A stretch of 34,695 bases of DNA from a virus (lineage: Duplodnaviria > Caudoviricetes). The translations under genes and the position numbers were made by a program. Location of the stretch: IMG/VR virus record IMGVR_UViG_3300025875_000072, positions 1 to 34,695 of that record. One strand, given 5' to 3'. Of the stretch, positions 1,849 to 28,500 are shown one piece after another; the first letter of the stretch is position 1; each line of letters starts with the position of its first letter. The notes beneath the pieces are model-generated. The model was not told where the DNA came from, made no database searches, and saw nothing but the letters and a program-made list of their open reading frames with translations.

Positions 1849-2441
1849 CAGTGCGTCCTGCTGCCGAAGCCGGCGAGGGCCGGGTTGTTGCGGAAGAGGT
1901 TCGTCTTGCGGGCGCCGCGCTCCTCACGCTCCAGCAGGAGCCAAGCGCGAAGCTCGTCCTCCTCTTCGAAGCGGTCGAGAACCTGGGAGCCGATGGCCTT
2001 CGATTGGAACCGGCGGGCCGCCGAGGTGGCGATGTAGGTACGGGCGGTCTCGGGCAGCTCCTCGAAGGAGAAGGCCCAGACGATCTTCACGCTAACGGAA
2101 GCGTCGAACTCGAAGGAGCGGGTGTCCTTGCTGTAGAGCGCGAGGCCCTTCGTCGGATGCTTGCGGATGACCAGCTCGTCGATCCCCATGCTCTCGACCT
2201 TGAGGGCGTTGGCGGGGACCATGATGTGCCCGTCGATGTCGGGCGCGAGCGGGTAGTTCGTGTCGGTGTTGAAGGCGAACCCATGGGACAGGACGCGGCG
2301 CGTGGCGGTAGCCAAGCGGGCCTGTGCGATGGAGACGTCCTTGATGCCGCTCACGTTCAGCGAGTTCACCGGGGCTTGGCCGATGGACATCAACATTTCG
2401 TTGACTGCCTCCAGCTCGGACATGGGGCTAAGGATGGGCAT
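1848..2441 (-). CDS. Tail tubular protein A (T7 gp11-like)
   Basis: SELEAVNEMLMSIGQAPV...GFAFNT...FEELPETARTYI motifs; synteny. Confidence 0.92.
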   Translation of the reverse strand: MPILSPMSELEAVNEMLMSIGQAPVNSLNVSGIKDVSIAQARLATATRRVLSHGFAFNTDTNYPLAPDIDGHIMVPANALKVESMGIDELVIRKHPTKGLALYSKDTRSFEFDASVSVKIVWAFSFEELPETARTYIATSAARRFQSKAIGSQVLDRFEEEDELRAWLLLEREERGARKTNLFRNNPALAGFGSRTH

Positions 2442-2889
2442 AGTGGCCCCTTTCCTCTAGGTAGAGAGCCGCTTGGCGGAGCCGCTGCGGGCTATCGCCA
2501 AGGTTCCCGATACCTTTGTTGCATTGAGAGCAGAGAAGTCCTCGGACCTCCCCGGTGCGATGGTTGTGATCGACTGCGAGACGCAGCCCGTTCTCTTCGG
2601 GGGTCTTGGCGCAGATCGCGCAGCCGCCGTTTTGGTCGGCCAACTTCCGGTCGTATTCCGCGAGGGACAGGCCGTAGGTGTTGCGGAGGAAGGCGTCCTT
2701 CCGCTGGCCTTTGGTCCGCTGGTAGCGAGCCTTGCAGGCGGCGCGGTCGCATGCGCGACACTCCGTGCCCAGCCCGTCAGGCTTGGATCGGTTGCGGTTG
2801 AACTCGGTCAGGGGCTTTGTCGAACCACAGCGGGGACAATGCTTGACCGCAGCGCCGTCAGGCGCCGTGGTGAGGCTGTGGTTGGACAA
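2428..2889 (-). CDS. Endonuclease VII-type homing endonuclease (start uncertain, TTG 2889)
   Basis: CPRC...CRAC zinc finger, YGLS..EY, QNGGCAIC, LAVDHNH.TGEVRGLLCSQCNKGIG. Confidence 0.85.
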   Translation of the reverse strand: MSNHSLTTAPDGAAVKHCPRCGSTKPLTEFNRNRSKPDGLGTECRACDRAACKARYQRTKGQRKDAFLRNTYGLSLAEYDRKLADQNGGCAICAKTPEENGLRLAVDHNHRTGEVRGLLCSQCNKGIGNLGDSPQRLRQAALYLEERGHYAHP

Positions 2890-2902
2890 GGCTCCGTTCG
2901 TG

Positions 2903-2938
2903 AAAAAATAGGGGGCCTCCGGTGAAGGAAGCCCCCTT
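2903..2938 (-). terminator. T-phi-like intrinsic terminator after the capsid gene
   Basis: Minus strand AGGGGGCTTCC-TTCACC-GGAGGCCCCCT followed by ATTTTTT, just after the capsid stop. Confidence 0.85.
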
Positions 2939-2948
2939 GGGGTAGTGA

Positions 2949-3932
2949 TTAGGCGGGGACGGCGCCGGTACGCAGCTCGACAGCGCACTTGCTGCGGAGC
3001 TTCCGAGTGCCGACCATCATGCGCGCGATCAGCAGGTCGCCCTGCTTGCGCGGCTGCGGTTCCACCTGGAAACCGATCTCCTGCACGATGACAGAAGCGG
3101 CGGCCATCGGGGTCCACACGGCGCCAATGGTGGTCCCGAAGGATCCACGGTAGACGGCCGGGATGAAGTCCTCGTGCGCGGCGTTGGTGAAGTTGCCGGC
3201 GCGGCTGTCCTCACCGAAGGGGGCGAGGTTGGACTTGAGGACGTTGATGTCGTCGATGGTCGTCAGCGACATCTTGCGGATGTCGGCCGAGCCGCCGTTG
3301 GTGTCGCGGTTCAGGTTCTTGTCGCTGCGGGCGACGAGGTACCACTGCGCGGGCTTGAGGAGCGCGTTGATAACCTGCGCGTCAACCGGCACGTCCTTCT
3401 CGTCCATTGCCTGCTTCGAAGCCGAGAGGGCGTCGATCAGGGCGTTGGCGTCGGTCGCGAGGTTGCCGGCCACGACAGCGGAGCCGCCCTGGTCGCCAGC
3501 GAACAGCGCACCGGAGCGCGCAGCGAGGATCACCGTCCGCATGACATTGCGGTCGAAGTGGCGAGCCAGGAAGCTGCCCATCTCCGTGGTGTACGGCTGA
3601 CGCACGTCGAAGTGGTTCAGGATTTCGTCGATGTCCGAGAGGAAGACGTCCGAGACGAGCTTGTCGTCGGGCTCGACCTTGATCTCGGTGTGCGCGATCT
3701 TGCGGCCCGTCAGCTCGGTGCCGGGGGTGTGGTAGCCACCGCCCGCGCGCCAGATGGCCGGGAACTTGACCGACTTGCCGTTCGACAGAGTGCGGGTCTG
3801 GTGCTTGTCGCGCATGATGGTCGCGGTTTCGAACGCGGTGATGACTTCGCCAGCGGCGAGGTCGAGCATCAGCGCGCGGTTGTCGCCCGACAGCTGGTTC
3901 TGGCCGGGGAAGTTCGGATCGGAGTTGGCCAC
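2949..3932 (-). CDS. Major capsid protein (T7 gp10-like)
   Basis: ALMLDLAAGEVITAF, RTLSNGKSVKFP, HFDVRQPYTTEMG, QGDLLIARMMVG..LRSKCAVEL. Confidence 0.95.
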   Translation of the reverse strand: MANSDPNFPGQNQLSGDNRALMLDLAAGEVITAFETATIMRDKHQTRTLSNGKSVKFPAIWRAGGGYHTPGTELTGRKIAHTEIKVEPDDKLVSDVFLSDIDEILNHFDVRQPYTTEMGSFLARHFDRNVMRTVILAARSGALFAGDQGGSAVVAGNLATDANALIDALSASKQAMDEKDVPVDAQVINALLKPAQWYLVARSDKNLNRDTNGGSADIRKMSLTTIDDINVLKSNLAPFGEDSRAGNFTNAAHEDFIPAVYRGSFGTTIGAVWTPMAAASVIVQEIGFQVEPQPRKQGDLLIARMMVGTRKLRSKCAVELRTGAVPA

Positions 3933-5228: not shown

Positions 5229-6782
5229 TTATGCTCCTGCGCCCTGCTCGGGCGCCATGATGGCCTCGGCGCCGACCTTCGCGACTTGCGGGGCGGCGGC
5301 CATTGCGGCTTGGTTGGTGGCGGCAGCTTGGTCTTCCTGCGCGAGGGTGTCGGCGCTCTTGAAGAGCGTATCGAGACCTTCGACGCCGTAGGAGTCGCCC
5401 AGGCGCTTGCCGAGTTCGGTGGGATCGGTGATCCGCGAGAGAACCTGCTGACCGTAGATGTTGGTCAGGTCGGTCATGAGCATGCGGATTTTGTTCGCGG
5501 CGTGGTTGCGGCCAAGCGCCTCGAAGCCGGTAACGATGGTGGGGTTGACGTCGGCCGGCAGCTCAGGCGCCTCGCCTTCGCGGACGAGGATGTAGAGCAG
5601 GCGGCGTATCAGAGGCAGCTGGAACTCAGCCGAGAGGACCGTGTAGACCCCGCCCAGTACGTTCTCCAGCTCCTGCGCCATCGCTCGGATTTCCTCGGCG
5701 GTGACGCGCTCGGCGTTCCGCACGGTGCCCGATTGGAGCAGGAAGGCATGCGACAGGCGAAGCTCGAGGCGCGATGCGACCTCGGAAGCGACCGAGAAGT
5801 CCTGCGTCTTTTCGAGCTGCAGGGCTTTGACCTTGTCGACGTAGCCGGTGACGAAGTCTCCGCTCTCGGCGGTCGCCAGTTCCTCGATGTCGACCATCGC
5901 GTTCGGGTCCACCATGTGGATGATCCGTGCGGCGACCGAGGCGAACTGAATGATCGCCTTCGAGAGGTCTTCGAGGCTCATCAGGTCTCCGACGTACTCG
6001 GAAACATGAGCGCGACCGTAGTCGCTGCCGGGGATCGCCTGCCAGCGCAGGGCCATCCAGCCCGCTTCGGCGCGGGGCGCGCGGCCTTCGCTCTCGGGGA
6101 CCAGGGTCTCGTTGATCTCCTGATAGTGGACGACCTCGTCCTCCTCGACCTTCACATGCGTGTAGATCGTGACGAGCTTGTCGTTCTCCTTGCCCTCTTC
6201 CACCACGACCTTGCAGGCCGCTCGGACTTCTTCGGACAGGGTGGACGGGTAGACCTTCTCTTCGATCACGGCTTCGATCATCCGGCCGCGCTCGTCGCGC
6301 AGGACGACATACTGATCGAGGCGATAGAGGCGCGGCGGGAGCCTCTCGAGGCCGACGTAGACCAGGGCGTTGCCGCCGACGATCAGGTGGCGAAGGGTCT
6401 CCATGAAGATCGGCCGCATGGCTGCGGTCTCGACCAGCAGGTGTGCCTTGGAGGAGATGCGGCCCAGCGCCGTCTTCACGGTCGTCAGGTTCTCGCCAAG
6501 CTCCTCGGCGGTGTCCTCGTGGACACTGATGCGGGCGAAGGCTTGATCCGGCGGGAAGAGCGTCAGCAGGAGCCAAGAGGCCAGGTTGTTCACGCAGCGA
6601 GCCCCGAGGGACTGATAGGGCTGCGAGAAGGCGCTGTTGGCGTCCTGCGCGTCGGCAGGGATCAGGCCGGGGATGGTGAGGTCGGAGTTCTTGCGGGCGC
6701 GCTCCAGCGCGGTGTTGCGGGTGCCACGCAGCTGCTCATAGCGCCGCTTGGCTTGCGCCACGATGGCGGTATCGGCGGCCAC
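5229..6782 (-). CDS. Portal / head-tail connector (T7 gp8-like)
   Basis: PYQSLGARCVNNLAS, SDYGR, RNAERVTAEEIR...ELENVLGGVY, IVTGFEALGR. Confidence 0.96.
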   Translation of the reverse strand: MAADTAIVAQAKRRYEQLRGTRNTALERARKNSDLTIPGLIPADAQDANSAFSQPYQSLGARCVNNLASWLLLTLFPPDQAFARISVHEDTAEELGENLTTVKTALGRISSKAHLLVETAAMRPIFMETLRHLIVGGNALVYVGLERLPPRLYRLDQYVVLRDERGRMIEAVIEEKVYPSTLSEEVRAACKVVVEEGKENDKLVTIYTHVKVEEDEVVHYQEINETLVPESEGRAPRAEAGWMALRWQAIPGSDYGRAHVSEYVGDLMSLEDLSKAIIQFASVAARIIHMVDPNAMVDIEELATAESGDFVTGYVDKVKALQLEKTQDFSVASEVASRLELRLSHAFLLQSGTVRNAERVTAEEIRAMAQELENVLGGVYTVLSAEFQLPLIRRLLYILVREGEAPELPADVNPTIVTGFEALGRNHAANKIRMLMTDLTNIYGQQVLSRITDPTELGKRLGDSYGVEGLDTLFKSADTLAQEDQAAATNQAAMAAAPQVAKVGAEAIMAPEQGAGA

Positions 6783-7322: not shown

Positions 7323-7346
7323 TCCTCCAAGGGTACTGACTAATTG
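7323..7346 (-). promoter_or_regulatory. Phage RNAP promoter (late), +1 about 7328
   Basis: CAATTAGTCAGTACCCTT|GGAGG; same -17..+1 geometry as T7/T3/K11 promoters; consensus occurs five times. Confidence 0.85.
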
Positions 7347-8583: not shown

Positions 8584-8864
8584 GGCGCCACCGGACAGGG
8601 GTTGTTGATGGCGGCCCGAAGGCGCTCGTTCTCGGCCATGCGGACACGGCGGTCGGACGTGACGATCTTGGACAGCTCCCAGATGCTCATGCCCTCGCGG
8701 GCTGTGGTGACCGGGTACTCAGGCGTCGGAACCTGCTCGATCTGGCAAGGCACCGGGATCGGAACCTTCACTTCAACGGCAGCACCGGGCACGGTCTGGG
8801 TGGCGCAGGCGGGGGTGAGTAGCAGGAGGCCGAGGGCCATCCAGAGGCGAGCGATGCGGCTCAT
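8580..8864 (-). CDS. Putative o-spanin (Rz1-like lipoprotein)
   Basis: Signal peptide and lipobox LLLTPA-C20, Pro-rich VEVKVPIPVPC segment. Confidence 0.7.
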   Translation of the reverse strand: MSRIARLWMALGLLLLTPACATQTVPGAAVEVKVPIPVPCQIEQVPTPEYPVTTAREGMSIWELSKIVTSDRRVRMAENERLRAAINNPCPVAP

Positions 8865-9851: not shown

Positions 9852-9874
9852 GATGTTCTCCTTAACGGAAGGGC

Positions 9875-12422: not shown

Positions 12423-12943
12423 ACGGGCTTGGTCTTGGCGGCGATCAGGCTGGCGGCGACCCCCTTGTGCGGGCGGTCGTCGATCAACTTGTCGTTGGCT
12501 CGGGCATCGAGGACGATAGCCATGCAGCACATCGCGTGGGCCAGCTCATGCTCGCCGCTCTCGGCGTCGTTGTCGTTGCCGTCGATCCAGCTGGCGATGT
12601 GGCGCAACGCCGCGTTGGCGTAGGTCATCGCCTCCACCGGGTCTTTGCGCCAGTTGAAGGGGCCGTACTTGTCGGCCCCCAGCTGGAACACGCCGGCCGC
12701 CTCGATCATGGCCGCTGCCGGCATGAGAGCGAGGGATGGCTTGGCGCGACCGTGGATGGCCTTGGGGTTCTCGGGGAGCGGAGACCCTGCGGACGGGAAA
12801 GGGTCCGTGCGTGGTTCCCACAACGGGTTCGACCCCGCGCTGCAGCCTCGCGACACGCACACCTCTGCAGGCGTCTCGCGGTGCTTGCAGTCGAAGCAGC
12901 TGCGGTCTTCCGGCAGCGTCAGGTTAACGGAACTATAGGACAT
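12416..12943 (-). CDS. DUF5664 dATP/dGTP diphosphohydrolase-domain protein
   Basis: NPK..G..K, GADKYGPFNWR, AALRH, DAESG..ELAHA motifs; N-terminal CxxC...CxxxxC. Confidence 0.82.
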   Translation of the reverse strand: MSYSSVNLTLPEDRSCFDCKHRETPAEVCVSRGCSAGSNPLWEPRTDPFPSAGSPLPENPKAIHGRAKPSLALMPAAAMIEAAGVFQLGADKYGPFNWRKDPVEAMTYANAALRHIASWIDGNDNDAESGEHELAHAMCCMAIVLDARANDKLIDDRPHKGVAASLIAAKTKPVN

Positions 12944-14603: not shown

Positions 14604-14746
14604 CGGCCCTTGCGGCGGCGCACCGACCAAGTCGGCTCACGCTTCGAGGGCAGGCGGTCTGCGCTGGCGGGGATGCCGGCGGCGGTGCAGGCGGCGACGA
14701 GGGCGAGGCCCAGGGCCGTCGGACGGCAGATCAGTTCGCGGGTCAC
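14600..14746 (-). CDS. Small hypothetical protein (48 aa)
   Basis: Read manually; GTGA overlaps with both neighbours. Confidence 0.55.
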   Translation of the reverse strand: MTRELICRPTALGLALVAACTAAGIPASADRLPSKREPTWSVRRRKGR

Positions 14747-14985
14747 GCTGCCACCTCGGCGTCCACGAGGCGCCACTCAACGAAGCGATTGTCGTGGCTG
14801 TCGCGCTTCTCGACGGAGGCGATCAGCTTCCCCTCGGGGATCAGCTCGGGCTTCCGGTTCTTGATGCGCCAGATGGCGGATGCGACCTGCACTCGGCCCA
14901 GTTCAGCGAAGCCGGTGGCCTCGGTGATGTGGCCCTTGGAGCGCAGGATGTTCATGACTTGCTGTTCGCGGGTCAGACGGCTCAT
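14743..14985 (-). CDS. Small winged-helix protein
   Basis: ILRSKGHIT..TGFAELGRVQVASAIWRIK helix-turn-helix-like pattern. Confidence 0.65.
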   Translation of the reverse strand: MSRLTREQQVMNILRSKGHITEATGFAELGRVQVASAIWRIKNRKPELIPEGKLIASVEKRDSHDNRFVEWRLVDAEVAA

Positions 14986-16898: not shown

Positions 16899-17503
16899 GC
16901 GTAGGGGTTCGATCCGCTGGGGTTGCTGCGGGTCCGCAGGAACGGCTCGGCGTGGCGCACGGAGGCGTCCACGATCTTGCCATCGACCAACTCACGGAAC
17001 AGGTAGCCGACGCGGACCTTGCCGTACTTGGAGCGGCCACGGGCGGCGTCGATGCTGGCGTGAACTGTCTGTCCAACGGAACCATCGGCGTAGATGTTCA
17101 GGACTTCCGTCTTGCGGACGGCAGGCACGTTGATGATGTCGTCGGCATGCTCGACCGAGACAGGACCGCCGAAGGCGCGACCGTCAGCCGCGACGATCCG
17201 GGGGGTAGGGGCGATGCCCCAAGCACCGGGCACGGTGATGACCAAGCGGCCATCCGGCAGGGTGCCTTCGAGCTTCACCGGGGTGCCCGAGCGGGTCTGC
17301 AGGGGCCTGGAGGTGTCGAGGGTGACCACGGCGGCGACGTTGCGGATGTCAGGGCGACGGCCGAAAACGTGCTTGCCGTTCTCCCGATAGATGAACTGGC
17401 CTACGCCCTCGATTTGGACGACGTTGTAGTTCGGCCCTTCGCTGCGGAGGGAGGTGACGGGGGTGCCGTCGACGGTCTCCAGCGGCTTCGTGAAGTCGAT
17501 CAT
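16895..17503 (-). CDS. Hypothetical protein with internal duplication
   Basis: IDFTKPLETVDGTPV / LDTSRPLQTRSGTPV repeats. Confidence 0.72.
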   Translation of the reverse strand: MIDFTKPLETVDGTPVTSLRSEGPNYNVVQIEGVGQFIYRENGKHVFGRRPDIRNVAAVVTLDTSRPLQTRSGTPVKLEGTLPDGRLVITVPGAWGIAPTPRIVAADGRAFGGPVSVEHADDIINVPAVRKTEVLNIYADGSVGQTVHASIDAARGRSKYGKVRVGYLFRELVDGKIVDASVRHAEPFLRTRSNPSGSNPYA

Positions 17504-18028: not shown

Positions 18029-18052
18029 CAGACCTATGGTCCTGACTAATTG
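18029..18052 (-). promoter_or_regulatory. Phage RNAP promoter directly after the RNAP gene, +1 about 18034
   Basis: CAATTAGTCAGGACCATA|GG; position equivalent to T7 phi1.1. Confidence 0.88.
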
Positions 18053-18086
18053 GCACCCGCCCCTGATCGTCACGATAACGGAACTA

Positions 18087-20615
18087 TTATGCGAACGTGT
18101 AGAGAGCCCCGAGAACCTCGTTCAGGTCGAGGTCGCCGGCCGCCGGGGGAGGCGGAAGCTCGCCGGCCAGCTCGTCACCGAGCTGCCCCTTGAGTTCCTC
18201 GTAGAGGCCCCCGAGAACGTCACCGCTATACTGCTCCACGAACGTCTCCCGCAGGATGCGCGAGAGGCGGCCGGTGTTCGCAGCATGGGTGCCGAAGCTG
18301 TCGTGGATCATCGCAATGTGCGCGATCCCTTCCCGCTTCGCGCGCAGCGCAACCGCCTGCAGATGCGAGGCGTCGAGCGAGTGGACGAAGTTCGGGGCAA
18401 CCCCGTTCGCCTGCGCCCGGCTGTCGAGGACGTCCCCTTCCTTCTGGATGGTGAGGTCGACCCGCTGCCCGGCCCAGTGGGCGCGGACGATGACGCCTTC
18501 GGTCTTCTTGTATTCCTGCAGGACCGGCAGGCCCATCGGGGTCGTCCACCACAGCGGGAGGTCGGCCTTAGCGGCCACCTTCGCTGCCTCGCGGAGCCAA
18601 TCCATCGCCCGAGCAGCCGAGGAGACCGTCAGGCTAATGGAACTATACAGGACGTGCGAGAGCCACATGGCCGCCTGATAGTTGTCCACGCCGCCGAGGT
18701 ACGGCCCTTCGCCGGCTTCCTCCCGCGCCTTGTCCAGTTCCCGCAGGGTCTGCAGGATCATCGCCTGCATCCCGAACCGGGTGGCTGAGTAGCAGAAGGT
18801 CATGGTCGGGCGCTTCGCGATGGAACGGGTGATCTTGCCACCGGCCCACGCCTTGCGGATCGGCTCTGTCGGCACCTCGACCGCCTCGCCGTCGACCTTG
18901 GTCGTCAGCTTAACGGAACTAATTGCCGGGTAGAGACGCACCAGTTCCTCGTGGGAGCAGTCCGCCATCGCCTGGGCGTTGCCGGCCACAGCCATGTAGA
19001 CGTCCTGCGGCTTCTCGGAGGGCAGGAGGTTGACCGCACGGCCGCCTTCCGTGTCCCGCAGCATCGCGGAGAAGTGCTGCAGGCCCGAGCAGGAGCCGTC
19101 GAGGGCGATGGGGAGGCGCGAGACGAAGCTCGTCCCCTCCTCCAGCATCCCAACGTACTCGATGCAGGCCGCGAGGGCGCACCACGGGCTGTCCGCAGTC
19201 GTCCAGAAGCGGTTGCCGTCCAGAGGCATGACGCCACTGTCGATCAGCTCGTTGGTGTTGTCGATGACCCACTGGACCCGCTCGTCGAACGAGACCTTGT
19301 CCACGCCGAACAGGTTGGCGATGTGGATCATGAGCCACCGCTTGCCTTCCTCACCGAGGGGCATGCCGTCCGCGAACTGGATCAGGGCCTTCTGCCAATC
19401 ATTCCCCTGCGGGGTCGGGCCGAACGCAGGGATCGGGTACACCCGGCCACGGAAGTCCAGCTCGTGCGGGAAGAACATGCGCTCCTCCTCCGCGAACCGG
19501 CGGGCGACCCACAGGTCACGGTGGAGGGCCAAGCGGCTGCTCTGCAGGTCAGCATTGCGCCCATAGACGGTCGCCGCCTCACGCTTCCACGCGATCTTGG
19601 CTTCCTCGTTGGTGTCAATGTCGAGCGGCTTGGGCGGCACGGGCTCGTCCTGACGGCGCGGCAGGCCCCCGAGGGAGCCGCCTTCGGTCCAGACCTTCTC
19701 CATCGCATCGAGGATCGCCGTGTTGATGACCCACGGGCTGTCCTGAATGTGGTTCACGGCCTCGTAGACGTCGCTGATGTCGGCGTTCCGAAGCTCGTCG
19801 TGGTAGGCGAGGTTCCGCTGCTTGATGAAGCGGTTACCGGGGCGTGGCGTCAGGTACCCGCCATAGGTGGGGGAGCGCCAGCGGCGGGGGCGGCAGACCA
19901 TCGGCATGTTGAGCGGGGCGAGCAGTTCGCACCGGGCGTGCTGCTTGTCGAACCACTCCTGCAGCGTCTCAGTGGTGCGAACCTGCAGGACGTAGCCCTT
20001 GGCGCGCTTGACCTTCTCGATCACGAAGAAGCCGGTCGCCTCTTGCGCCATCTCGATGCACTTGGTGCCGACCGTGGCCTTCTCCGCGTCGCTCATGGTG
20101 ATCGCCACGCCCTCGGCCACGAACAGCTTCTTGACGGCGGCGGCGCGCTGGCGGCTGTACCCGCGCTGCTCCTGCTTCTTGAGGTAGCCCTTGTAGCCCT
20201 TGCGGTTCATCTCGCGGAACGCATTGAACTCGAGGTTCTCGATGATCGCGTTCGCCACCTTGATCGCCACCGTCTGCAGCAGCGAGCCAGCCATCGCGCA
20301 GTTCACGAGGACGCGCAGAGTCAGGTAGGCGGCCTCTGCGGGGTCCGAGAGGAGCAGCAGGGGGTAGGCGTTGTGGTGGCGGCCTGCCTTCTGCTGGCCG
20401 ATCTTCTCAAGGAAGGCGTTGATCTCGTCCACAGTGGGCTGGACGGCGAGCTTGAGCAGCTGACGGCCCGGCGGGAGGTTGGCCTCCTCGTCGATGCTTC
20501 CGGCCTCGGTCTTCCAAGGGAGGGCACGGGCACGGTAGCGCGAGGCGCCGAGGTCGCGGGCGTCGTCCTCCAGCTCGAGCTGGCGGCGAACTTGGGAGCG
20601 GAAATCGTAGGGCAT
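18087..20615 (-). CDS. Single-subunit T7-like RNA polymerase
   Basis: DFRGRVY, LDGSCSGLQH, RSIAKRPTMTFCYS, PNFVHSLDASH, IHDSFGTH. Confidence 0.98.
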   Translation of the reverse strand: MPYDFRSQVRRQLELEDDARDLGASRYRARALPWKTEAGSIDEEANLPPGRQLLKLAVQPTVDEINAFLEKIGQQKAGRHHNAYPLLLLSDPAEAAYLTLRVLVNCAMAGSLLQTVAIKVANAIIENLEFNAFREMNRKGYKGYLKKQEQRGYSRQRAAAVKKLFVAEGVAITMSDAEKATVGTKCIEMAQEATGFFVIEKVKRAKGYVLQVRTTETLQEWFDKQHARCELLAPLNMPMVCRPRRWRSPTYGGYLTPRPGNRFIKQRNLAYHDELRNADISDVYEAVNHIQDSPWVINTAILDAMEKVWTEGGSLGGLPRRQDEPVPPKPLDIDTNEEAKIAWKREAATVYGRNADLQSSRLALHRDLWVARRFAEEERMFFPHELDFRGRVYPIPAFGPTPQGNDWQKALIQFADGMPLGEEGKRWLMIHIANLFGVDKVSFDERVQWVIDNTNELIDSGVMPLDGNRFWTTADSPWCALAACIEYVGMLEEGTSFVSRLPIALDGSCSGLQHFSAMLRDTEGGRAVNLLPSEKPQDVYMAVAGNAQAMADCSHEELVRLYPAISSVKLTTKVDGEAVEVPTEPIRKAWAGGKITRSIAKRPTMTFCYSATRFGMQAMILQTLRELDKAREEAGEGPYLGGVDNYQAAMWLSHVLYSSISLTVSSAARAMDWLREAAKVAAKADLPLWWTTPMGLPVLQEYKKTEGVIVRAHWAGQRVDLTIQKEGDVLDSRAQANGVAPNFVHSLDASHLQAVALRAKREGIAHIAMIHDSFGTHAANTGRLSRILRETFVEQYSGDVLGGLYEELKGQLGDELAGELPPPPAAGDLDLNEVLGALYTFA

Positions 20616-20712
20616 GCGTGATCCTTCCGGTCAGGGATGAGGGCCGGCAGAACGCCAGCCTTGGATGGGGCAAATGGTGGGGAGCCTATGGTACGGCATA
20701 ATTGCCGCGCGC

Positions 20713-20741
20713 CCCCTACCGTTGGCACGATGGTCTGTCAA
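20713..20741 (-). promoter_or_regulatory. Host sigma70 promoter for the RNAP gene, overlapped by repeats
   Basis: TTGACA (20741-20736), 17 nt, TAGGGG; alphaproteobacterial -10 elements often lack the final T. Confidence 0.65.
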
Positions 20742-20819
20742 ACGGAACTATCGTGCCAGATCGTGCCGATTTAGGGGTGTGCCATCGCGCCAGCTTGGCA
20801 CGATGCAGAAAGGGCTAAA

Positions 20820-20886
20820 AAATGGCGGAAATGCGCCGTTTCTGACGCACCTCCGCTACCAGCACTTTGGCAGATTTCCGCCATTT
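20820..20886 (+). other. Candidate attP: core CCTCCGCTACCA (20850-20861) between 13-bp inverted repeats
   Basis: Directly 3' of the integrase; core reads like a tRNA 3' end ending in CCA; flanked by AAATGGCGGAAAT / ATTTCCGCCATTT. Confidence 0.6.
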
Positions 20887-22141
20887 ATTGCAGAGCCACC
20901 GTGCCAAGCTCGGCACGGTTCCCCCGGCTAACGGAATGGCTCCGTTTGGCGGAGTTTCCGGGATTTTCCTCCGTATTCCCATCAGATGCGGGACTTGAAA
21001 GGATCGCCACGCCTTGCAGCAGGGCCTGGGCGGAGAGGTGCGTGTACCTCTTCGAGGTGATCGACACGTCCGAGTGACCAGCCCACCACGACAGGCGCTG
21101 CAGTTCCATCCCGCCGAGGGCGAGCCGGGTGATGCAGGTATGGCGCAGCGTGTGCAGGCTGACGTCGTCGATGTTGTGGCCGAGCGCCCGCACATCGTCC
21201 CGCAGGTTGTCCCACATATAGATCAGGCGGGAGTGCAGCTTCGGGAACCACAGCCCGTCCACGGCCTGCCGGTTCAACTCGTCGAACAGCGCGGACGCCG
21301 CAGGGGTCGCAGGGACCAAGCGGGGCTTCTCGCTCTTCGTCAGGTACTCGGGGAGCAGCAGCGCCGGCCGCAGCACCCCATCGCTGTCCCTGATCTCGAT
21401 CACGCTGGCGGGGCCGAGCAGCAGCCCTTCGCCCCGGCGAAAGCCGGTCTCGATCAGGATGCGGACGAACATCTGGAAGCGCCGCCAAGGCCGGTTGGGG
21501 TCGGTGCGCTGCCGTGCGTCCATCGCCTTGAACATCGCCTCTTCCTCGGCAGGCTGCAGGACGCGGTTCTTGTTGTTCCGCACCTTGATCTCCGGCATGC
21601 GCGGCTTGGCCGCCAGCAACGGGCGCCCATCCTCGTCCTCGTAGAGTTCGACCGCCGAACGCAGGGCCTTCGACAGCGCGTCCATCTTGCGCTTCACGGT
21701 GCCGGGCTTGTTCCCCTCCGCGAGCAGCTGGTCGGCCAGATCGCGCAGGCGCTGCCGGGTCATGTCGGTGACCAGCTCGTCGCCCACCAGTTCGATCAGG
21801 ATTTTGACGTTGGAGCGAACGGTCTTCTGCGCCCGCGCCTTGCCCCACACCTCGTCGTCCATCTCGCAGCGGTCGAGCAGCTGCTTCATCGTGTAGCCTG
21901 ACGGAGCCTTCCGTCTAACGGAAGCGGGGCCGTCAGTGTCGCGCCCCTTGGGGGCCACAACCGCTCCCCGAGAGAAGTGCTTCGGGTGGACCCCGATCTC
22001 CCACTCCTTGCGCTGCTTCTCGGCCTCCGCCCGGTCGCGGGTGTCGCAGCTGACGCGCTGGCGCTTGGGCTTGCCATCTTCGCCCGGCACCGTCACGTCG
22101 AGGTAGAAGATGCCGTTCGCCTTGGTTCCGATCTTCGCCAT
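20885..22141 (-). CDS. int: Tyrosine integrase
   Basis: TGFRRGE (R), TKSEK (K), HTLRH, GH, KRY catalytic set; N-terminal arm-binding-like domain. Confidence 0.95.
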   Translation of the reverse strand: MAKIGTKANGIFYLDVTVPGEDGKPKRQRVSCDTRDRAEAEKQRKEWEIGVHPKHFSRGAVVAPKGRDTDGPASVRRKAPSGYTMKQLLDRCEMDDEVWGKARAQKTVRSNVKILIELVGDELVTDMTRQRLRDLADQLLAEGNKPGTVKRKMDALSKALRSAVELYEDEDGRPLLAAKPRMPEIKVRNNKNRVLQPAEEEAMFKAMDARQRTDPNRPWRRFQMFVRILIETGFRRGEGLLLGPASVIEIRDSDGVLRPALLLPEYLTKSEKPRLVPATPAASALFDELNRQAVDGLWFPKLHSRLIYMWDNLRDDVRALGHNIDDVSLHTLRHTCITRLALGGMELQRLSWWAGHSDVSITSKRYTHLSAQALLQGVAILSSPASDGNTEENPGNSAKRSHSVSRGNRAELGTVALQ

Positions 22142-22145
22142 CGGA

Positions 22146-22679
22146 TTATCCTTTCAGTGCTTTATGCAGCGCCTTCATGACCTTGCGGCCTTCCGGCGTG
22201 AGCTTGATGAACTTCTGCCGGTTGTCAGCCGGGTTCAGGTCCGAGGTGAGCCACCCCAGGCCCTTCGGGAAGGCCCGCGATGGCTCCATCAGGATGCGGT
22301 AGGTGGTGTGCAGGCTGCGGTTCAGGCGGTCCCCGACCATCTCCTTGATGTCGCCAAACGTGGCGGGGCGGCCAGCGAGGTCCGAAGTCGCAGCGAGCAT
22401 GAAGAAGATCAGCTGCGAAGCGGTCATGCGCTCGAGCCACCCGACCCGGCCGACAACCTCGAAGTCGCCAGGCGCGAACTCCTGCGTCCCGCAGCCCTGC
22501 AGACGGGCCATCCCGTTCCGCATGATCTGGCTCACGACCATCCTGCGAGTGCCGTAGGCGGCGAGGTGGGGCTTGGGATCGACGAGATCGCCCAAGGCCA
22601 GCGGCAGGCTCTGCGTGGTGACGCGGGTGAGGAACTCGGTCTCGGCGTCGGGGTAGAAATCGGGGTTCTTCATGGTCAT
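22146..22679 (-). CDS. MarR-like winged-helix regulator (candidate repressor)
   Basis: C-terminal GLGWL...NPADNRQKFIKLTPEGR wing motif; adjacent to the integrase. Confidence 0.75.
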   Translation of the reverse strand: MTMKNPDFYPDAETEFLTRVTTQSLPLALGDLVDPKPHLAAYGTRRMVVSQIMRNGMARLQGCGTQEFAPGDFEVVGRVGWLERMTASQLIFFMLAATSDLAGRPATFGDIKEMVGDRLNRSLHTTYRILMEPSRAFPKGLGWLTSDLNPADNRQKFIKLTPEGRKVMKALHKALKG

Positions 22680-22879
22680 GCTTCCTTCTGCTTACATGGT
22701 TGACAGGTGAGGCTTGCGAAGTTCGCGGTGGGTGCCCCGCAGGACTTGCAGGGCGGGAGCGGCTTGCTGACGCGCCACCCGCCGAGCAGGCCGTGGATGG
22801 CCTTCGCTTCGCGCTTGCTGATGGGCTGGCGGGAGGCGGCGATTGCCGCATCGACCGCGTCGGGGTTGTAGCGGCTCAC
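22676..22879 (-). CDS. Small zinc-finger protein
   Basis: GTG 22879; CKSC...CQPC at the C-terminus. Confidence 0.62.
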   Translation of the reverse strand: MSRYNPDAVDAAIAASRQPISKREAKAIHGLLGGWRVSKPLPPCKSCGAPTANFASLTCQPCKQKEA

Positions 22880-23049
22880 TTGCTCGGCTCCCCGGTCAGG
22901 TGTTCGTGGCCGACCCATTCGATGCCGACGCGGTAGCAGGGCCATCCGTGGCCGGTTGCTACCGCTTCGACGACGCCCTTGACGCGCCGGGTGCGGATGC
23001 GGTCGCCGACGGTGGCGAATGGGATCGGATGCGGACGGCAGTGGCTCAT
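22876..23049 (-). CDS. Small hypothetical protein (57 aa)
   Basis: Read manually, MSHCRPHPIPFATVGDRIR...; 4-nt overlaps on both sides. Confidence 0.55.
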   Translation of the reverse strand: MSHCRPHPIPFATVGDRIRTRRVKGVVEAVATGHGWPCYRVGIEWVGHEHLTGEPSK

Positions 23050-23234
23050 GCTTCAAGCTCCTTGAGGACACCCGCCAGCGCCCCAAGGAGCGCCGGGAGG
23101 CCGTGAGTGGTGATCTGGGCGACAGGCGCTACCGGCCCGCCGATGTGGATGGAGAACAGGGCCGTGATGATGGCCCCGGCGAGCAGCCCGACAACGAGAC
23201 CGGGCAGCGCCATGCAGAAGGTGCGGAGGATCAT
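23046..23234 (-). CDS. Small two-TM membrane protein
   Basis: ATG 23234; two hydrophobic segments. Confidence 0.62.
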   Translation of the reverse strand: MILRTFCMALPGLVVGLLAGAIITALFSIHIGGPVAPVAQITTHGLPALLGALAGVLKELEA

Positions 23235-23710
23235 TGCCCTGCCCCCTTCGTGGCCGTAATCTCCTGCGACAGGCGGATGACCTTGCGGGCCGCCCAATGC
23301 TTCGCGGCAGGGGCTACGGCATGCTGATCGGCCACGATCCCGTCTCGCAGGGTGACGCAATGGCCGCCGACGGTGAGCAGGTAGGTGACGCCGGGCTTGG
23401 CATGGCGCCGGGCGAAGGTGGCGACTGTGCAGCGTTCAACGTACCGGCCACCCGCCACGGCGTGACAGGTGCCCCGGATCATCCGAGCAGGGACGTGGAA
23501 GCGTTCGACGTAGGAGGCGCCAAGGGCCTTGAGGGCGCGGCTTCGGTCAGCGTCGTAGGTGCGGCCCCTCCAGCTGGCGCCGTAGCTCGCTTGGGCCTTG
23601 ATGGTGCCCCATGCGTCCTCGAAGGATACGCCAGCGGCGATGGCGACGGCCAGCACTCCACAGTGCGGCTCTTTTCGCGGGGCATAGCCCGCCGGGTAGC
23701 GGATGCTCAC
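23231..23710 (-). CDS. Hypothetical protein, possibly papain-like (Cys-His-Asp)
   Basis: HCGVLAVAIA...GGHCVTLRDG..AD arrangement. Confidence 0.65.
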   Translation of the reverse strand: MSIRYPAGYAPRKEPHCGVLAVAIAAGVSFEDAWGTIKAQASYGASWRGRTYDADRSRALKALGASYVERFHVPARMIRGTCHAVAGGRYVERCTVATFARRHAKPGVTYLLTVGGHCVTLRDGIVADQHAVAPAAKHWAARKVIRLSQEITATKGAGQ

Positions 23711-24075
23711 TGGCCGTTCTCCCCGTAGACCGCCGCATAGACGCCGTTGCAGGTCTCGTTGTCGGCATGGTCAGCGATCAGTTCGCTGCCGTCCTCCGCG
23801 TTGCCCCAGACCAGCAGGAAGGAGCCAAGACGGCGACCATCGACCGTGTGGACGTACAGGCTGTCCTCGCCGGTCGTGCAGAGCGCGTCGAGGATCGTGG
23901 AGCGGATCACCTCGCGCTTGACCGTCGTCTCGGTCCCGTCGTGGACGCTGATTTCGTAGCCATGCGCCAGCAGTTGCGTGACGAGCTTTCGGGCGACTTG
24001 GCGCTCCCCAACGGTGGCGAAGCGCATGAAGCTGGACTGCCCGGTGAAAGCGCGCTGTGGGTCGGTCATGGTCAT
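23707..24075 (-). CDS. Early hypothetical protein
   Basis: AAAGGA SD, ATG 24075; GYEISVHDG...LLVWGN..ELIADH. Confidence 0.72.
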   Translation of the reverse strand: MTMTDPQRAFTGQSSFMRFATVGERQVARKLVTQLLAHGYEISVHDGTETTVKREVIRSTILDALCTTGEDSLYVHTVDGRRLGSFLLVWGNAEDGSELIADHADNETCNGVYAAVYGENGQ

Positions 24076-24113
24076 TGTGGGTTCCTTTCGTCGAGTTTCT
24101 GGCTTGTGGAAGT

Positions 24114-24887
24114 TCAGGCGACGTGGCGCTTGCCGCCGCCGTGTGCTGCGATCTGGACGGAGACGCGAGCCTTGCCCGAGGTGCCCATGCAGGCCCGGCA
24201 GGAGAAGCAATCGGTGACCTTGCCCTTCTCTTCGGATGCCGGGCAGACCGTCTCGCGGCCCTTGATGTTGGCGAAGGGTTCCGAGGTGACGCGGAAGGTG
24301 CGGTAGCCCTTGGCGTGTGCCGCATCCATGTCTTCAACGCTGTCGGCGCTGGCCATCACCAGTTCCGCCCAATGGGCAGGCACATCGCGCCACTGGTGGG
24401 TGTACCCTGTCCAGCCCTTGGCGTCCCGCAAGGCGACCTTCCAGAGCGCATAGGGTGCAGCTGCAGGATCGCCGTAGGTGCCGAGCCGCACCATCTTGCC
24501 AGCGAAGATCAGGGACGCCTCAAAGGCGTTCGCCTTCGGATAGATGCCGCGCTTGTAGCTGGCATAGACCGAACGCGGCCCATGGATCAGGGTGACGTAG
24601 CAAGAGCGTCCCGCCCCTGTCCCGTCTCCACGATGCGGGCAGGTGCCACAGATAGAGGCATCCTCCCCCGTCTTGACCGCGTCAATCGGGCTGACATCAG
24701 ACCGGATGATGTAGGTTTGCACCATCGCTCCCGTCTTGGCGTTGGCGCTCTTGTTGCGGATGCCGGTGGCGATGACCACGATAGGCTTGCCGTCCAGCTT
24801 GCTCGGGCCTTCATACAGGATGACGCCGTTCGCCTTGGCGAGGTTAGCAGAGAGGGTGAGTTCGCCGGTTGCGGTGGGATTGAACAT
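24114..24887 (-). CDS. Cys-rich, radical-SAM-like early protein
   Basis: NAKTG, CGTCPH...CY, VRLGTYGDP, GYTHQW, CPA...CFSCRAC; AGGAG SD before ATG 24887. Confidence 0.72.
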   Translation of the reverse strand: MFNPTATGELTLSANLAKANGVILYEGPSKLDGKPIVVIATGIRNKSANAKTGAMVQTYIIRSDVSPIDAVKTGEDASICGTCPHRGDGTGAGRSCYVTLIHGPRSVYASYKRGIYPKANAFEASLIFAGKMVRLGTYGDPAAAPYALWKVALRDAKGWTGYTHQWRDVPAHWAELVMASADSVEDMDAAHAKGYRTFRVTSEPFANIKGRETVCPASEEKGKVTDCFSCRACMGTSGKARVSVQIAAHGGGKRHVA

Positions 24888-24925
24888 GAGAATGGCTCCT
24901 ATCGAATATCTGGCTTGTGGAACTG

Positions 24926-25039
24926 TTAGGCGAAAGCGTACTCGGCGGCAATCAGCCGCTCGGCAGCGTTGAAGGCGTCGGCATCGCCACGGCACATGGC
25001 TTCGTCACGGCAGGTGTAGAGGATCGCAAGGTAGTCCAT
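24926..25039 (-). CDS. First early gene (37 aa)
   Basis: AGGAG SD, MDYLAILYTCRDEAMCRGDADAFNAAERLIAAEYAFA. Confidence 0.6.
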   Translation of the reverse strand: MDYLAILYTCRDEAMCRGDADAFNAAERLIAAEYAFA

Positions 25040-25049
25040 GAGGTTCTCC

Positions 25050-25352
25050 TGTAGGTCGGTTGCCACGTTCCCCTGTCTTGCGTTGAGGGAGCGAAGGAAC
25101 CGGCGGGCATTGTGCCCGCTATGCCGCCCGGTTGGCCGGGTCGGCAGGTTCGGTTCGCGGGGACGCTTGTGGTCCCCCGGCGACCCCCCTCTATGGGAGC
25201 CGCGTCACCCTGCTACCGGGCGGCAGTCTCGTCTGGACCGCCCGTCACATAGGCCCGCTTCCAATCACAGGTTCGGCTCAGTGGCCCGGTCTAGCGGAGA
25301 CCGTGGGGAGCGTTTGGGGAGCCTCTCGGCGGCCCGTCGTTCCCTCGTTGTT
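25050..25352 (-). ncRNA. Long structured early leader
   Basis: About 300 nt with no convincing ORF and at least six hairpins, including a multibranch domain. Confidence 0.4.
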
Positions 25353-25358
25353 GAACCC

Positions 25359-25387
25359 CTTCTAGCGGCGGCCGATCGTGCTGTAAA
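25359..25387 (-). promoter_or_regulatory. Host sigma70 early promoter
   Basis: TTTACA, 17 nt, TAGAAG, AT-rich upstream; GCACGATC lies in the spacer. Confidence 0.7.
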
Positions 25388-25532
25388 CAAGAAAATGAGG
25401 CTTCCAGAACTATTTTTACAGGAATGGCGGTTTTCTGCGGGTTTCAGGGCCGAAAAAAATGCAGGGCGGGGTCTGAAAGGGCGCTGCCAGGGCGATAAAT
25501 GACAGGCCACAGCGCGCCGGATCGGCCCCGCG

Positions 25533-25870
25533 TCGGCAGGCCCCGGCAGGCATCGGCAGGCGCCGGCAGGGCAGGCCCCATAGGAGCCCGTAGGAGCCCC
25601 ACAGGGCGCGGAGAGGCTGGCAGGGCACCACAGGCCCCGGCAGGCCCCGCTAGGCCACCACAGGGCACCACAGGGCACCAGACACCGGCAGGGCGCGGCA
25701 GGGCACCACAGGGCACGGTAGGACACCACAGGGCACGGTAGGGCACCACAGGGCGCGATAGGTGGCCCGCAGGTGCCAGCACGAAAAAAGCAGGGCCGCG
25801 CGGACCCGAACGAATACCCATGGCAGGCCCCTAGCGCCACCACAGGGCACCAGCTGGCCCCCACAGGGCG
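25533..25870. repeat. Degenerate ~10-bp tandem array (CCACAGGGCA / GGCAGG family) near the genome-end junction
   Basis: Visible 10-bp period, e.g. cagggcacca cagggcacca; related units recur at 26220-26260. Confidence 0.8.
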
Positions 25871-26099
25871 CACGATCTGGCACGATCCCCTCGGCAGTGG
25901 GACTGAAACGGCAGTTTCCCTAGGTGCCGCCCTTCAACGTGCCGCCTATCGTGCCATAGGGGCATGGCCCTAGGCCTTCGGAAGGGGAGCGGAAGGGCCG
26001 CCACAGGGCCGGTGGGCAGGCCCCACCCCATGGGGGGAGACCCGTGCCTGTCATGAGCGTTATGCCGCTTCGGATTTTTGCAGCAAAACCAACGGCTTT

Positions 26100-26122
26100 C
26101 AATTAGTCAGTACCCTTGGGGG
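26100..26122 (+). promoter_or_regulatory. Antisense phage RNAP promoter, +1 about 26118
   Basis: CAATTAGTCAGTACCCTTGG, identical over 20 nt to the 7346 promoter but on the plus strand. Confidence 0.75.
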
Positions 26123-26306
26123 TGGGGATAATGGAAGGATACCTATAGGTACCCCACAGGAACCCTCCGGTGATCCTTCGGAGATCGAGGAGGTGAGGGT
26201 AGGGGGAGGAGGGGGAAGAGGCCCCACAGGAGCCCCAGGGAGGCCCACAGGAGCCCTTGGGGAGCCGGGAGGGTACTACCCCGCCCAGCCCCCTCTCTAG
26301 GCCTTC

Positions 26307-26753
26307 TCAGGCCGTCAGGTAGAGCGCAGCTTCACGAGCCCGTCGGGTGACCAGCCCACGCAGCACCACGCGCTTGCCCCGCACCGTGCCCTTGTTCCAG
26401 AGCTTGATGCCGGCCGCAGCGCCCTGGTGGTCACCAGCAAGGTGCCGGCGGAGGGCGGTGGAGCGGACGAAGGCGGAGATGCCGATGTTGAAGGCGAGGC
26501 TGACGAACGCAGCGAACTGGTTGTCGGTGGCGTTGGGAGCAGCCCGGGCCACAGCGGCCTCGAAGCGGCTCAGGTCTTTCCGCAGGAGGCTCTCGGCCTC
26601 GGCGCGGGTGATGACCATGCCCGGCTTGACGTGGCTTCCGGTGGACCCGTAGCCGATGGTCAGGTGCCCCGTGGGGCAGATGTAGGCCTGCAGCTCCAGG
26701 CCCTCGCAGTCCTTGATGATCGTCAGGCCTGCGGTGTTGATCTGGCGGGGGAT
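26307..26753 (-). CDS. GH24 lysozyme endolysin (probable ATC start)
   Basis: (I)PRQINTAGLTIIKDCEGLELQAYICPTGHLTIGYG with E-x8-C-x5-T triad; NQFAAFVSLAFNIG, GLVTRRAREA. Confidence 0.92.
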   Translation of the reverse strand: MPRQINTAGLTIIKDCEGLELQAYICPTGHLTIGYGSTGSHVKPGMVITRAEAESLLRKDLSRFEAAVARAAPNATDNQFAAFVSLAFNIGISAFVRSTALRRHLAGDHQGAAAGIKLWNKGTVRGKRVVLRGLVTRRAREAALYLTA

Positions 26754-26772
26754 GGTCGGTCCTTTCGTGATG

Positions 26773-28500
26773 TTAACGGAACCTTCGGCGACCCGAGGGG
26801 CGCCCTACGGCTCGGCGGGCGGCGATGCCCGAGGGGGGTCGGGTCCACTTGAACCCGGCGTTGGCGAAGAGCAGACGCTCGTATTCCTCGGCGGCCTTCC
26901 GCTCGCGGTCGCTCTGCGCCTTCTTCGCGTCGGCGTTGAGGTACTCGGCCCAGTGCTTGACACCCATCGCCAGCACGTCGGCCATGTCGTCGTGCTTGAG
27001 GGCGCCCTTGGCGTCCTGCATGTGGGTGAGCTGGAAGAGCCCTCGGTGGGCCACAGGGGCCATGAGGTCCGCTCGGCAGACGTTGGTGTCGATAACCAGG
27101 CGGTGCTGCCGCATGACCGGCTCCAGGGCCGCGATGATCCGCTGCTCCTTGTTGCCGACGGCGCGGATGCCCTCGATCCGGCAGGGGCGCAGGGCGTTGA
27201 CGTGCGTCTCGAGCAGCTTGCCGAACATGCCGTCACCGAAGTTGTCCTCGGGGACGATCAGGTTCACCTCATGCTCCGCGCTGATCTGCGCGAGGCGGGC
27301 GAGGGTCTCAGGGCCGTAGCCGTCCTGAAAGCCGCCCCAGGCGGTCACGAAGATGTAGCCGGCGAGGAACTTGGTGACGCAGTAGGTCGTGCGGTCACGT
27401 CCACGGCCCGAGGGGTCGATGAACATGGCAGACCCGGTGAACGCCAGGAACTCCTGCGAGGCCTTCATGGGCCGGTAGAGGCGGTCGCCGTCGAACCCGA
27501 CGTTCTCGATGTCCTTGATCGCCAGCTCGGGCGCCGAGGACCACACAAGGTAGCTGGGGGCCATCTTGCGGTCGACGTCCATGACGATCAGGTCGCGGGT
27601 CTTGAGCGGGTAGCGCTCGGCGTCCGACAGGGTCGTGTCGAGCTGGTACTGCAGCAGGAAGCCGGCTTGCCGGTACTCCGTCTCGCGCTCGAGCAAGTCC
27701 ATGTCGTCGAAGCGGTCAGGGTCGGTCGGGGCGCCTCCGATCATCGAAGCCATCGGCTTCATCAGGTCGGGGTTGGCCTCGAGGTCGGCCATGAGCATCG
27801 GCGCGATGAAGCCCCGGTAGTTCGCCAGCTTGTCGGCCGTCGGGTACCTTGCGGGCCAGATGCGGACCTCGTAGCCCTTGTCGGGCAGCTGCCGGTAGAT
27901 CGACTGTTCGGACTGCGGAGTGCCGAGGTAGACGATCTCGCCGTCAGGCTTGAGGATCGCGGCGTACTCCTTGGTCTTCGCCTCGAGCTTCTCGCGCATC
28001 GTCTCGGTTTCCGAGTTCTTCGGTACCTCGACGTCGTCCGAGATGACCAGATCGGCGCGAGAGCCGGTCAGCTGGCCGGTGATGCCCACGGCTTTCACCG
28101 AGGGGGACTTGTCGGCCTTGGCCGGTCCCACGTCGAAGATCAGGGCGGAGGACCGCTGGCCGGGCCGGGCGCGCAGCTCGGGCCACAGCTCGTCGCCGGC
28201 CTCGTGGTCGATGATCTGCTTGATGAAGCTCGCGATCTCGGTCGCGAAGGCCTCGTTGGCCGACACGATCATGATCTTGAGGTCGGGGTTGTTCCAGAGG
28301 CGCCACACGACGTAGGCCGCCGTGAGGAAGGTCTTGCCGACCCCACGGAACGCCTGGATGAACCGGCGGCGCCCACCGCCGACTAGGAAACGGGCTATGT
28401 CTAGCTGTACGCGGGTGGGCTGCGGCAAGAGCAGCAGCCGGGTCCAGACGTACCAGAGGAACTTGAGAAAGCTCCCCCGAAGTTGTTCTTGGGCGTTCAG
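26773..28500 (-). CDS. terL: Terminase large subunit (T7 gp19-like; probable CTG start)
   Basis: IQAFRGVGKT, GITGQLTGSRAD..ISDDVEVP, LGTPQ, IDPSGRGRD, HDD..D. Confidence 0.96.
   Translation of the reverse strand: MNAQEQLRGSFLKFLWYVWTRLLLLPQPTRVQLDIARFLVGGGRRRFIQAFRGVGKTFLTAAYVVWRLWNNPDLKIMIVSANEAFATEIASFIKQIIDHEAGDELWPELRARPGQRSSALIFDVGPAKADKSPSVKAVGITGQLTGSRADLVISDDVEVPKNSETETMREKLEAKTKEYAAILKPDGEIVYLGTPQSEQSIYRQLPDKGYEVRIWPARYPTADKLANYRGFIAPMLMADLEANPDLMKPMASMIGGAPTDPDRFDDMDLLERETEYRQAGFLLQYQLDTTLSDAERYPLKTRDLIVMDVDRKMAPSYLVWSSAPELAIKDIENVGFDGDRLYRPMKASQEFLAFTGSAMFIDPSGRGRDRTTYCVTKFLAGYIFVTAWGGFQDGYGPETLARLAQISAEHEVNLIVPEDNFGDGMFGKLLETHVNALRPCRIEGIRAVGNKEQRIIAALEPVMRQHRLVIDTNVCRADLMAPVAHRGLFQLTHMQDAKGALKHDDMADVLAMGVKHWAEYLNADAKKAQSDRERKAAEEYERLLFANAGFKWTRPPSGIAARRAVGRPSGRRRFR

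Follow-up and report, generated by a model that had tools for sequence, protein, structure and literature searches.

The 34,695-bp window analysed here is the whole of virus record IMGVR_UViG_3300025875_000072, an incomplete contig of a T7-like tailed phage in which a short word, TTCCGTTA, recurs along the gene strand. This word makes up the stronger half of a pseudo-palindrome of 16 bp, of which there are about 15 copies, all co-oriented. Comparison with related genomes suggests that these sites are probably operators, scattered along the genome, for the MarR-like repressor found in temperate T7-like phages. Acting on them, the MarR-like protein would keep the phage RNA polymerase (RNAP) off in the prophage. 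This bears on how a T7-like prophage with a self-amplifying RNA polymerase stays silent.

All identified genes of the window lie on the minus strand in a T7-like order. Early genes are followed by a winged-helix gene (22146..22679) whose product is the likely, predicted binder, a tyrosine integrase (20885..22141), a T7-type RNAP (18087..20615), replication genes, portal, capsid and tail; TerL and the lysis genes sit at the other side. The marR-like gene directly upstream of the tyrosine integrase, and then the T7-type RNAP, is the module order of temperate T7-like phages. The closest cultured relatives are Caulobacter phage S2B and phage jiawei (RNAP 53-54%). Because the closest prophage resides in Novosphingobium (68%), the host is inferred to be sphingomonad-like.

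A repeated word and the site around it

A first-pass annotation of this DNA had reported eight exact copies of TAACGGAA on the plus strand and none on the other, and the counts and coordinates are correct (8 and 0). Its rough expectation of about 0.2 copies per strand is upheld as well, with shuffled sequences giving a mean of 0.19 and a maximum of 3. Under a third-order Markov model, TTCCGTTA ranks first among the gene-strand 8-mers (expected 0.04). The codon-preserving check that the annotation had proposed was run as 2000 synonymous-codon resamplings of a hand-made set of 34 coding sequences, which gave a mean of 0.065 sense copies (maximum 2) against the 6 present. The antisense word is absent from this set although it is expected more often (0.166) than the sense word; therefore, codon use does not explain the strand bias. 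Four variants with one mismatch had also been named (17074, 18635, 20740 and 26129). All four fit the extended consensus given below, but one-mismatch words taken alone are near chance (15 vs. 8.3 ± 3.1), and the variant list was incomplete, since it left out 16992, 29914 and 31486, the last on the minus strand.

What had been described as an asymmetric word of 8-11 bp is better replaced by a pseudo-palindromic site of 16-23 bp. Twelve aligned copies give the consensus.at.gTTCCG-TTAR-cctGAc.gat, that is, a 16-bp pseudo-palindrome, gTTCCG-TTAR-cctGAc, with AT flanks, of which the 8-mer forms the left half and the centre. The 7 nt that follow the 8-mer played no role in site selection and are conserved (leave-one-out score 41 vs. 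-20 ± 7, a score reached by 0 of 5000 random sets). The AT flanks and the outer positions are mirror images, but at the inner arm positions the two halves show a constant difference (GTTCCG on the left and, read backwards, GTCAGG on the right). The site is a different element from both the phage promoter-like AATTAGTCAG family and GGCACGAT, a repeat of the gap between the integrase and RNAP genes. The CtrA, alphaproteobacterial LexA and EcfG motifs, compared by eye, do not fit it.

Position of the sites in the window

The window holds 13 sites of the main type and 2 of a TTCCAC type that the first-pass annotation had missed, and all 15 point the same way, on the minus strand and sense to transcription. 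Their placement at gene junctions had been described correctly. Around the RNAP gene, one site lies right after the stop codon (18069..18084), a family-wide position, 17 bp before a promoter-like sequence at 18051. Two more lie inside the gene, at 18628..18643 (codons for SSISLT), the same position as in most close relatives, and at 18904..18919, within a part of the gene that is shorter in close relatives. A fourth is found in the integrase-RNAP gap (20733..20748), 29 bp upstream of a promoter-like sequence at 20703. The integrase gene itself carries one copy internally (21909..21924, TTCCGT-TAG-ACGGAA) and one with a weak right half at its 3' end (20922..20937).

Among the replication genes, a site follows immediately 3' of the DNA polymerase stop (9856..9871) and another stands at the primase-helicase stop (12918..12933), where it overlaps the start of a dATP/dGTP diphosphohydrolase gene; LUZ100 and RHEph01 each have a copy at this junction too. 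Further copies are located in the tail tube A gene (2086..2101, CTTCCG-TTAG-CGTGAA), in the open reading frame (ORF) 16895-17503 (17067..17082), on the TerL stop codon (26767..26782) and beside a reverse-oriented promoter-like sequence at 26101-26116 (26122..26137). New in the present analysis are a weak site at 8774 in ORF 8580-8864 (8767..8782; 17.4 bits on the position weight matrix) and the two TTCCAC-type sites, 24098-24112 (CTTCCA-CAAG-CCAGAA, 16-bp span 24097..24112), just past an early-gene stop, and 24909-24923 (GTTCCA-CAAG-CCAGAT, span 24908..24923), at an early junction. In addition, a degenerate inverted pair (25378..25410) spans the -35 element of what is likely an early promoter read by the host (TTTACA-17-TAGAAG, by eye), with a 17-bp offset equal to that of a pair in S2B.

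Judged by the layout of T7-type promoters, the window contains six copies of a phage-RNAP promoter-like family, AATTAGTCAG(G/T)ACC. On the minus strand are a divergent copy upstream of RNAP (20688..20703), AATTAGTCAGGACCAT at 18036..18051, and copies at 17830-17845, 12406-12421 and 7330-7345; on the plus strand, a copy near the likely genome end (26101-26116) points against the genes. The earlier statement that a copy of the word overlaps the -35 of the RNAP promoter is unsupported: TTGACA does occur inside the 20740 site, yet no sigma70 promoter is called there, and the phage-type promoter-like sequence at 20688-20703 is found nearby instead. By analogy with phi1 of LUZ100 (PMC10134795, section 12), the latter would give the RNAP a self-amplifying loop. 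One candidate site stands beside this promoter-like sequence in the window (20733-20748), and two stand beside its counterpart in each of L085, L087, S2B and LUZ100.

Conservation among temperate relatives

The post-RNAP site was used as a seed in whole contigs of 32 MarR-positive T7-like genomes, with six random anchors per genome as the null. In 26 of the 32, a genome's own version of the site right after the RNAP stop out-recruited all six anchors, with about 5-15 copies each, so the conservation that the first-pass annotation had proposed to check is borne out; the fragments G009 and G030 are uninformative, as the marR region is missing from them. A related or equivalent site occupies the first 20 bases past the RNAP stop in most loci where that stop was found. 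In the close clade it reads TAGTTCC plus a variable centre, and in other clades TTGCGTCA, CCACCATA or GGCACGCT. Near-full palindromes occur in many distant phages and in G004, and 14 of the 16 positions are symmetric in G004, G021, G028 and G037. Relatives have sites in common at early junctions, ahead of RNAP (one or two copies), after it (one copy) and at replication-gene junctions, and the copy that they share inside RNAP lies 557 bp before the stop. In G001 and G007/G008 this in-RNAP copy varies in step with the motif of the phage itself. Relatives have up to 20 sites, compared with 15 in the 34.7-kb incomplete contig of the window.

Over the 32 genomes, 224 sites are sense and 59 antisense (283 in total), counts for which the offsets were set by hand, the expectation-maximization procedure may over-recruit, and the strand of near-palindromic sites is arbitrary. 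Orientation is strict in 6 of the 32 genomes and significantly biased in 12. It is mixed in G007, G008, G009, G013, G016, G021, G026 and jiawei, and the in-RNAP copy is flipped in G008.

Two cultured phages offer further examples. RHEph01 has 15 copies of its site. LUZ100 (L194) has an unannotated 16-bp repeat, TATCCA-CCAG-CGCATA, testable in the cultured phage, with 12 copies: 11 in the sense orientation (377, 578, 3940, 3996, 6690, 6966, 11570, 13196, 14660, 22151 and 34512) and one antisense (3847). Two of these fill the -35/-10 spacers of the host sigma70 promoters P1 and P2, which were mapped by ONT-cappable-seq, and two precede phi1. G027 has the same spacer-filling layout.

The sites go with the MarR-like gene. 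Among eight complete genomes without a MarR match, only T7 and Stalingrad beat the null, and the repeat there is the T7 promoter or a promoter-like word. A generic 10-mer statistic at gene stops was a poor discriminator, because promoters score in it too. The site family is absent from the lytic relatives T7, KNP, SB1, Stalingrad and Percy, and from BB8 and DU_RP_I, which have an integrase and no MarR match. The version in the Novosphingobium prophage occurs seven times in the 4.9-Mb genome, all co-oriented in two prophage contigs, thus nowhere in the rest of that genome, and zero times in two other genomes. The window version, TAGTTCCRTTA, occurs once in five alphaproteobacterial genomes, and that copy is in the Novosphingobium prophage. 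These host counts, together with the MarR-less genomes without the site family, disfavour the host-factor, packaging and translocation signals that the first-pass annotation had listed as alternatives.

As a separate observation, L197 (BB8, 5637-5915) and L198 (DU_RP_I) are possible intermediates toward lytic life.

The candidate binder

The product of 22146-22679 is predicted to adopt a winged-helix fold, with pLDDT 78-95 over residues 81-177 and a single confident winged helix-turn-helix (wHTH) domain. Its best Foldseek matches are mostly titled MarR or are MarR-type regulators (probability ~1.0, E at least 5e-3). Residues ~83-177 are conserved and the wHTH part is 56-72% identical to relatives. 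The N-terminal ~80 aa (22428-22679) are unlike relatives, had no homologue found and replace a conserved first helix; a 22-aa likeness of this N-terminus to T7 gp5.3 is weak. A homodimer prediction scored 0.02, which is informative neither way.

The recognition helix of the MarR-like protein goes with the motif class. RSLH[TS]TY is found with TTCC[AG], KSLNTTY with TTCGA, RSLKTTY with TCCCA, S[IV]RN[ST]Y with GGCACG, and RS[IV]EKS with CCCAC. In Mantel tests, motif distance correlates best with this helix (r 0.45, n 17), and a partial correlation (r 0.21, p 0.024) persists after RNAP, integrase (Int), TerL, a second small HTH-like protein (HTH2; 14743..14985, minus strand) and the rest of MarR are taken into account. 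With MarR controlled for, no further signal comes from Int, from RNAP or its specificity loop, or from HTH2. The correlation sets comprise 23 and 17 of the 32 genomes: G008, which duplicates G007, was not used, and a genome entered only if it had all of MarR, Int, RNAP, HTH2, TerL and Pol. Covariation of the motif with the wHTH gene, another proposed check, thus stands in so far as the recognition helix ranks first, although lineage is not fully separated. The claim of a MarR-like binder likewise holds in part, as comparison points to a phage-specific site that accompanies the MarR-like gene and is the probable target of its product; the stoperator-type membership attached to that claim is not supported and is discussed at the end.

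Proposed mechanism and rival explanations

MarR proteins bind as dimers on the arms of a dyad, with their wings on the flanks. A MarR-type dimer would accordingly bind both 6-bp arms of the present site and set its wings on the flanking AT positions. Initiation would be blocked by copies on the likely early host promoter and by those 4-30 bp before phage-RNAP promoters around RNAP; copies in the integrase, RNAP and replication genes would damp read-through. Such damping is of consequence, since a phage integrated at a tRNA 3' end has its RNAP gene downstream of a co-oriented host tRNA, which ends 376-614 bp upstream of the RNAP gene in 4 of 14 loci screened. A leak from that tRNA into the RNAP gene would feed RNAP's own promoter. 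L085 and L087 retain two sites in the stretch from the tRNA to RNAP, immediately ahead of phage promoter-like sequences. Immunity groups would be set apart by differences at the centre and in the inner arms of the site. We take the one-way orientation for the tuning of a dimer site and not for a strict requirement. A bolder extension, which we regard as possible and rather doubtful, is that a MarR-dimer system resembling stoperators evolved independently, with lopsided dyads, also in the RNAP coding sequence, that hold up host read-through and the phage's single-subunit polymerase in a polar manner, and with the centre as a family immunity code.

Several observations weigh against the operator network. 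Six of the 32 MarR-positive genomes failed to beat the random-anchor null. The Foldseek E-values (at least 5e-3) are weak, and Pfam MarR_2 is matched by 2 of 19 relatives' proteins, with the window protein below the Pfam MarR cut-offs. TerL keeps a partial correlation with the motif (r 0.33, p 0.001, 17-genome set), and the MarR tree and the RNAP tree, the latter a quick version, group the motif classes to an equal degree; the covariation therefore partly reflects shared lineage, from which it is not fully separable. A strict sigma70 consensus is overlapped by 3 of 283 relative sites (random, 8 of 9600), and most copies are therefore not classical host-promoter operators and need another role. 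The in-RNAP copy mismatches the post-stop variant in L007, L014, G030 and G009, as would be expected if the TTCC group tolerates changes at the centre or if this copy lags behind. Finally, the window phage has a degenerate early-promoter pair and a MarR-like protein with a replaced N-terminus.

The likeliest rival keeps the same binder and has it act mainly as a polar roadblock to elongation; the array would then be a functional stoperator system, and reversal of a site would abolish termination. We judge it unlikely. The sense orientation of 15 of 15 sites in the window and of 224 of 283 over the 32 genomes, with the bias significant in 12 of them, would suit it, as would the right half with its own fixed consensus rather than random decay, the many copies that are intragenic or past stop codons and far from promoters, and the host tRNA that reads toward RNAP in prophages. 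The mixed orientation in eight relatives and the flipped in-RNAP copy of G008 count against it. In LUZ100, only one of ten non-promoter copies falls within the 25 nt that follow a mapped termination site (T4, with a hairpin of its own), a comparison made by hand on lytic-infection data and hence weak.

It is improbable that another phage protein, the small HTH2 (14743-14985) or the integrase through arm-type sites, is the binder. Both are DNA-binding and found in most relatives, but neither has a partial correlation with the motif after MarR. HTH2 was not detected in the complete genome G004, which has the TTCCGTTA motif, and the window's HTH2 type also occurs in G009, G026 and G001, whose motifs differ. 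As for the integrase, the motif classes split on its tree, the two int-positive, MarR-less phages lack the site family, and separate GGCAC repeats that cluster in the int-RNAP gap across motif classes are better arm-site candidates.

Two further explanations have a slim chance each. An RNA-level signal, a phage-RNAP pause of the class II type, or a packaging or translocation signal would account for the sense bias, the placement past stop codons and the TerL correlation. It would not account for the dyad shape or for inverted copies and inverted pairs on promoters (S2B); the motif also varies independently of the phage promoter and the RNAP specificity loop, and is absent from the five lytic phages named above, which transcribe and package alike. 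Alternatively, the sites may be MarR operators by descent that are partly vestigial here, the early region and the marR 5' end having apparently been exchanged. The MarR N-terminus without a homologue found, the degenerate early-promoter pair and the early genes of 23700-25000, which are closest to those of the TTCCAC-class genomes G003/G026 and carry the TTCCAC site variant, speak for this, and an exchange of the early region in this phage may well be the explanation. Against vestigial sites stand the identity of the wHTH part to relatives, a perfect site in the RNAP segment peculiar to this phage, and coding copies that keep rare codons. A host transcription-factor or chromosome-polarity site is very improbable and largely refuted by the host counts, and phages of similar hosts differ in motif.

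If the sites are operators of the MarR-like protein, exact candidate operators are now at hand in the culturable phages S2B, LUZ100 and RHEph01. Immunity groups could be predicted from sequence, and temperate Autographiviridae could be recognised by the site. Gene circuits might draw orthogonal parts from cognate repressor-operator-RNAP sets.

Other features of the genome

Contigs of run X1, which may be the sample of origin, agree with window positions 8000-27000 with zero differing letters, and pieces of run X2 are identical, at low depth and with no variants. The GGCACGAT repeats occur in both orientations at 20724-20919, in the int-RNAP gap, and are likely integrase arm sites, with similar GGCAC repeats in S2B, jiawei and others; a second cluster, at 25869-25955, lies near the end repeats. 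No tRNA match was found for the attP core of the window, whose best 20-nt match lies within a protein-coding stretch; relatives do have a core that matches a host tRNA, and that of L085 is repeated after int in L192. An array of 10-bp direct repeats at 25527-25861 likely marks the genome-end region.

The dATP/dGTP diphosphohydrolase gene (12416-12997, PF18909) lies between primase-helicase and DNA polymerase, and an Endonuclease VII-type gene (2428-3117) is inserted between the capsid and tail tube A genes. Two large ORFs without a PHROG match (534 and 763 aa, the second with an internal repeat) occupy 28557-32460 between TerS and TerL. Of the two lysins present, one is a T7-type amidase (14999-15517) and the other, after TerL, a lysozyme-type endolysin (26307-26618). 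The phage recorded as 'Mycobacterium phage jiawei' (L002, OR464703) has an RNAP and gene order like those of Caulobacter phage S2B, and its recorded host may be wrong.

Comparison with known systems

Bacterial MarR-family operators are dyads of ~16-22 bp with AT-rich flanks. Their regulators (MarR, MexR, MepR and AbfR, all among the Foldseek matches) have the winged-helix fold in common with the protein of the window. The present sites differ from them in their genome-wide use by a phage and in their fixed left-right asymmetry.

The stoperators of cluster A mycobacteriophages (L5 gp71, TipsytheTRex) are 13-bp asymmetric sites bound by a two-domain monomer, with orientation-dependent termination demonstrated (PMC9283540; PMC6550527). 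Like those described there, the present sites are many, dispersed and mostly oriented with transcription, lie in promoters and short intergenic gaps, and have a motif that diverges with the repressor. The asymmetric 13-mer is replaced here by a 16-bp pseudo-palindrome (6+4+6), which is a near-full palindrome in several relatives, and the monomer with HTH and Stoperator domains by a single winged-helix MarR-like domain in the predicted structure. Orientation follows transcription for every site in the window, as in stoperators, but is mixed in several relatives, and many copies are intragenic. Stoperator systems have >20 repressor sites, and 15 are counted in this incomplete contig. The stoperator-type membership first proposed is therefore unsupported, given the site shape, the protein architecture, an orientation that is strict in only 6 of 32 genomes, and LUZ100 copies that mapped termination sites do not mark; the system works partly like stoperators and is not a member.

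The closest known system is the MarR/int module of temperate T7-like phages (LUZ100, S2B, Pasto, RHEph01), which is like the window in its marR-int-RNAP order and in the phage promoter upstream of RNAP; LUZ100 itself has the equivalent site. MarR has been hypothesised to bind sites that flank this promoter (PMC10134795, citing Boeckman et al., 2022), and the text available from that source places hypothetical sites at the RNAP promoter only and gives no sequence. A literature search found no publication with these site sequences or with a genome-wide array in T7-like phages; Boeckman et al. (2022) and the supplements and Table 1 of the LUZ100 paper lay outside its coverage and may bear on novelty. 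Compared with the published hypothesis, the site described here is a defined 6+4+6 sequence with phage-specific variants, dispersed over early promoters, the RNAP interior, and replication and late junctions. The present work thus extends a system that was already proposed and does not found a new kind.

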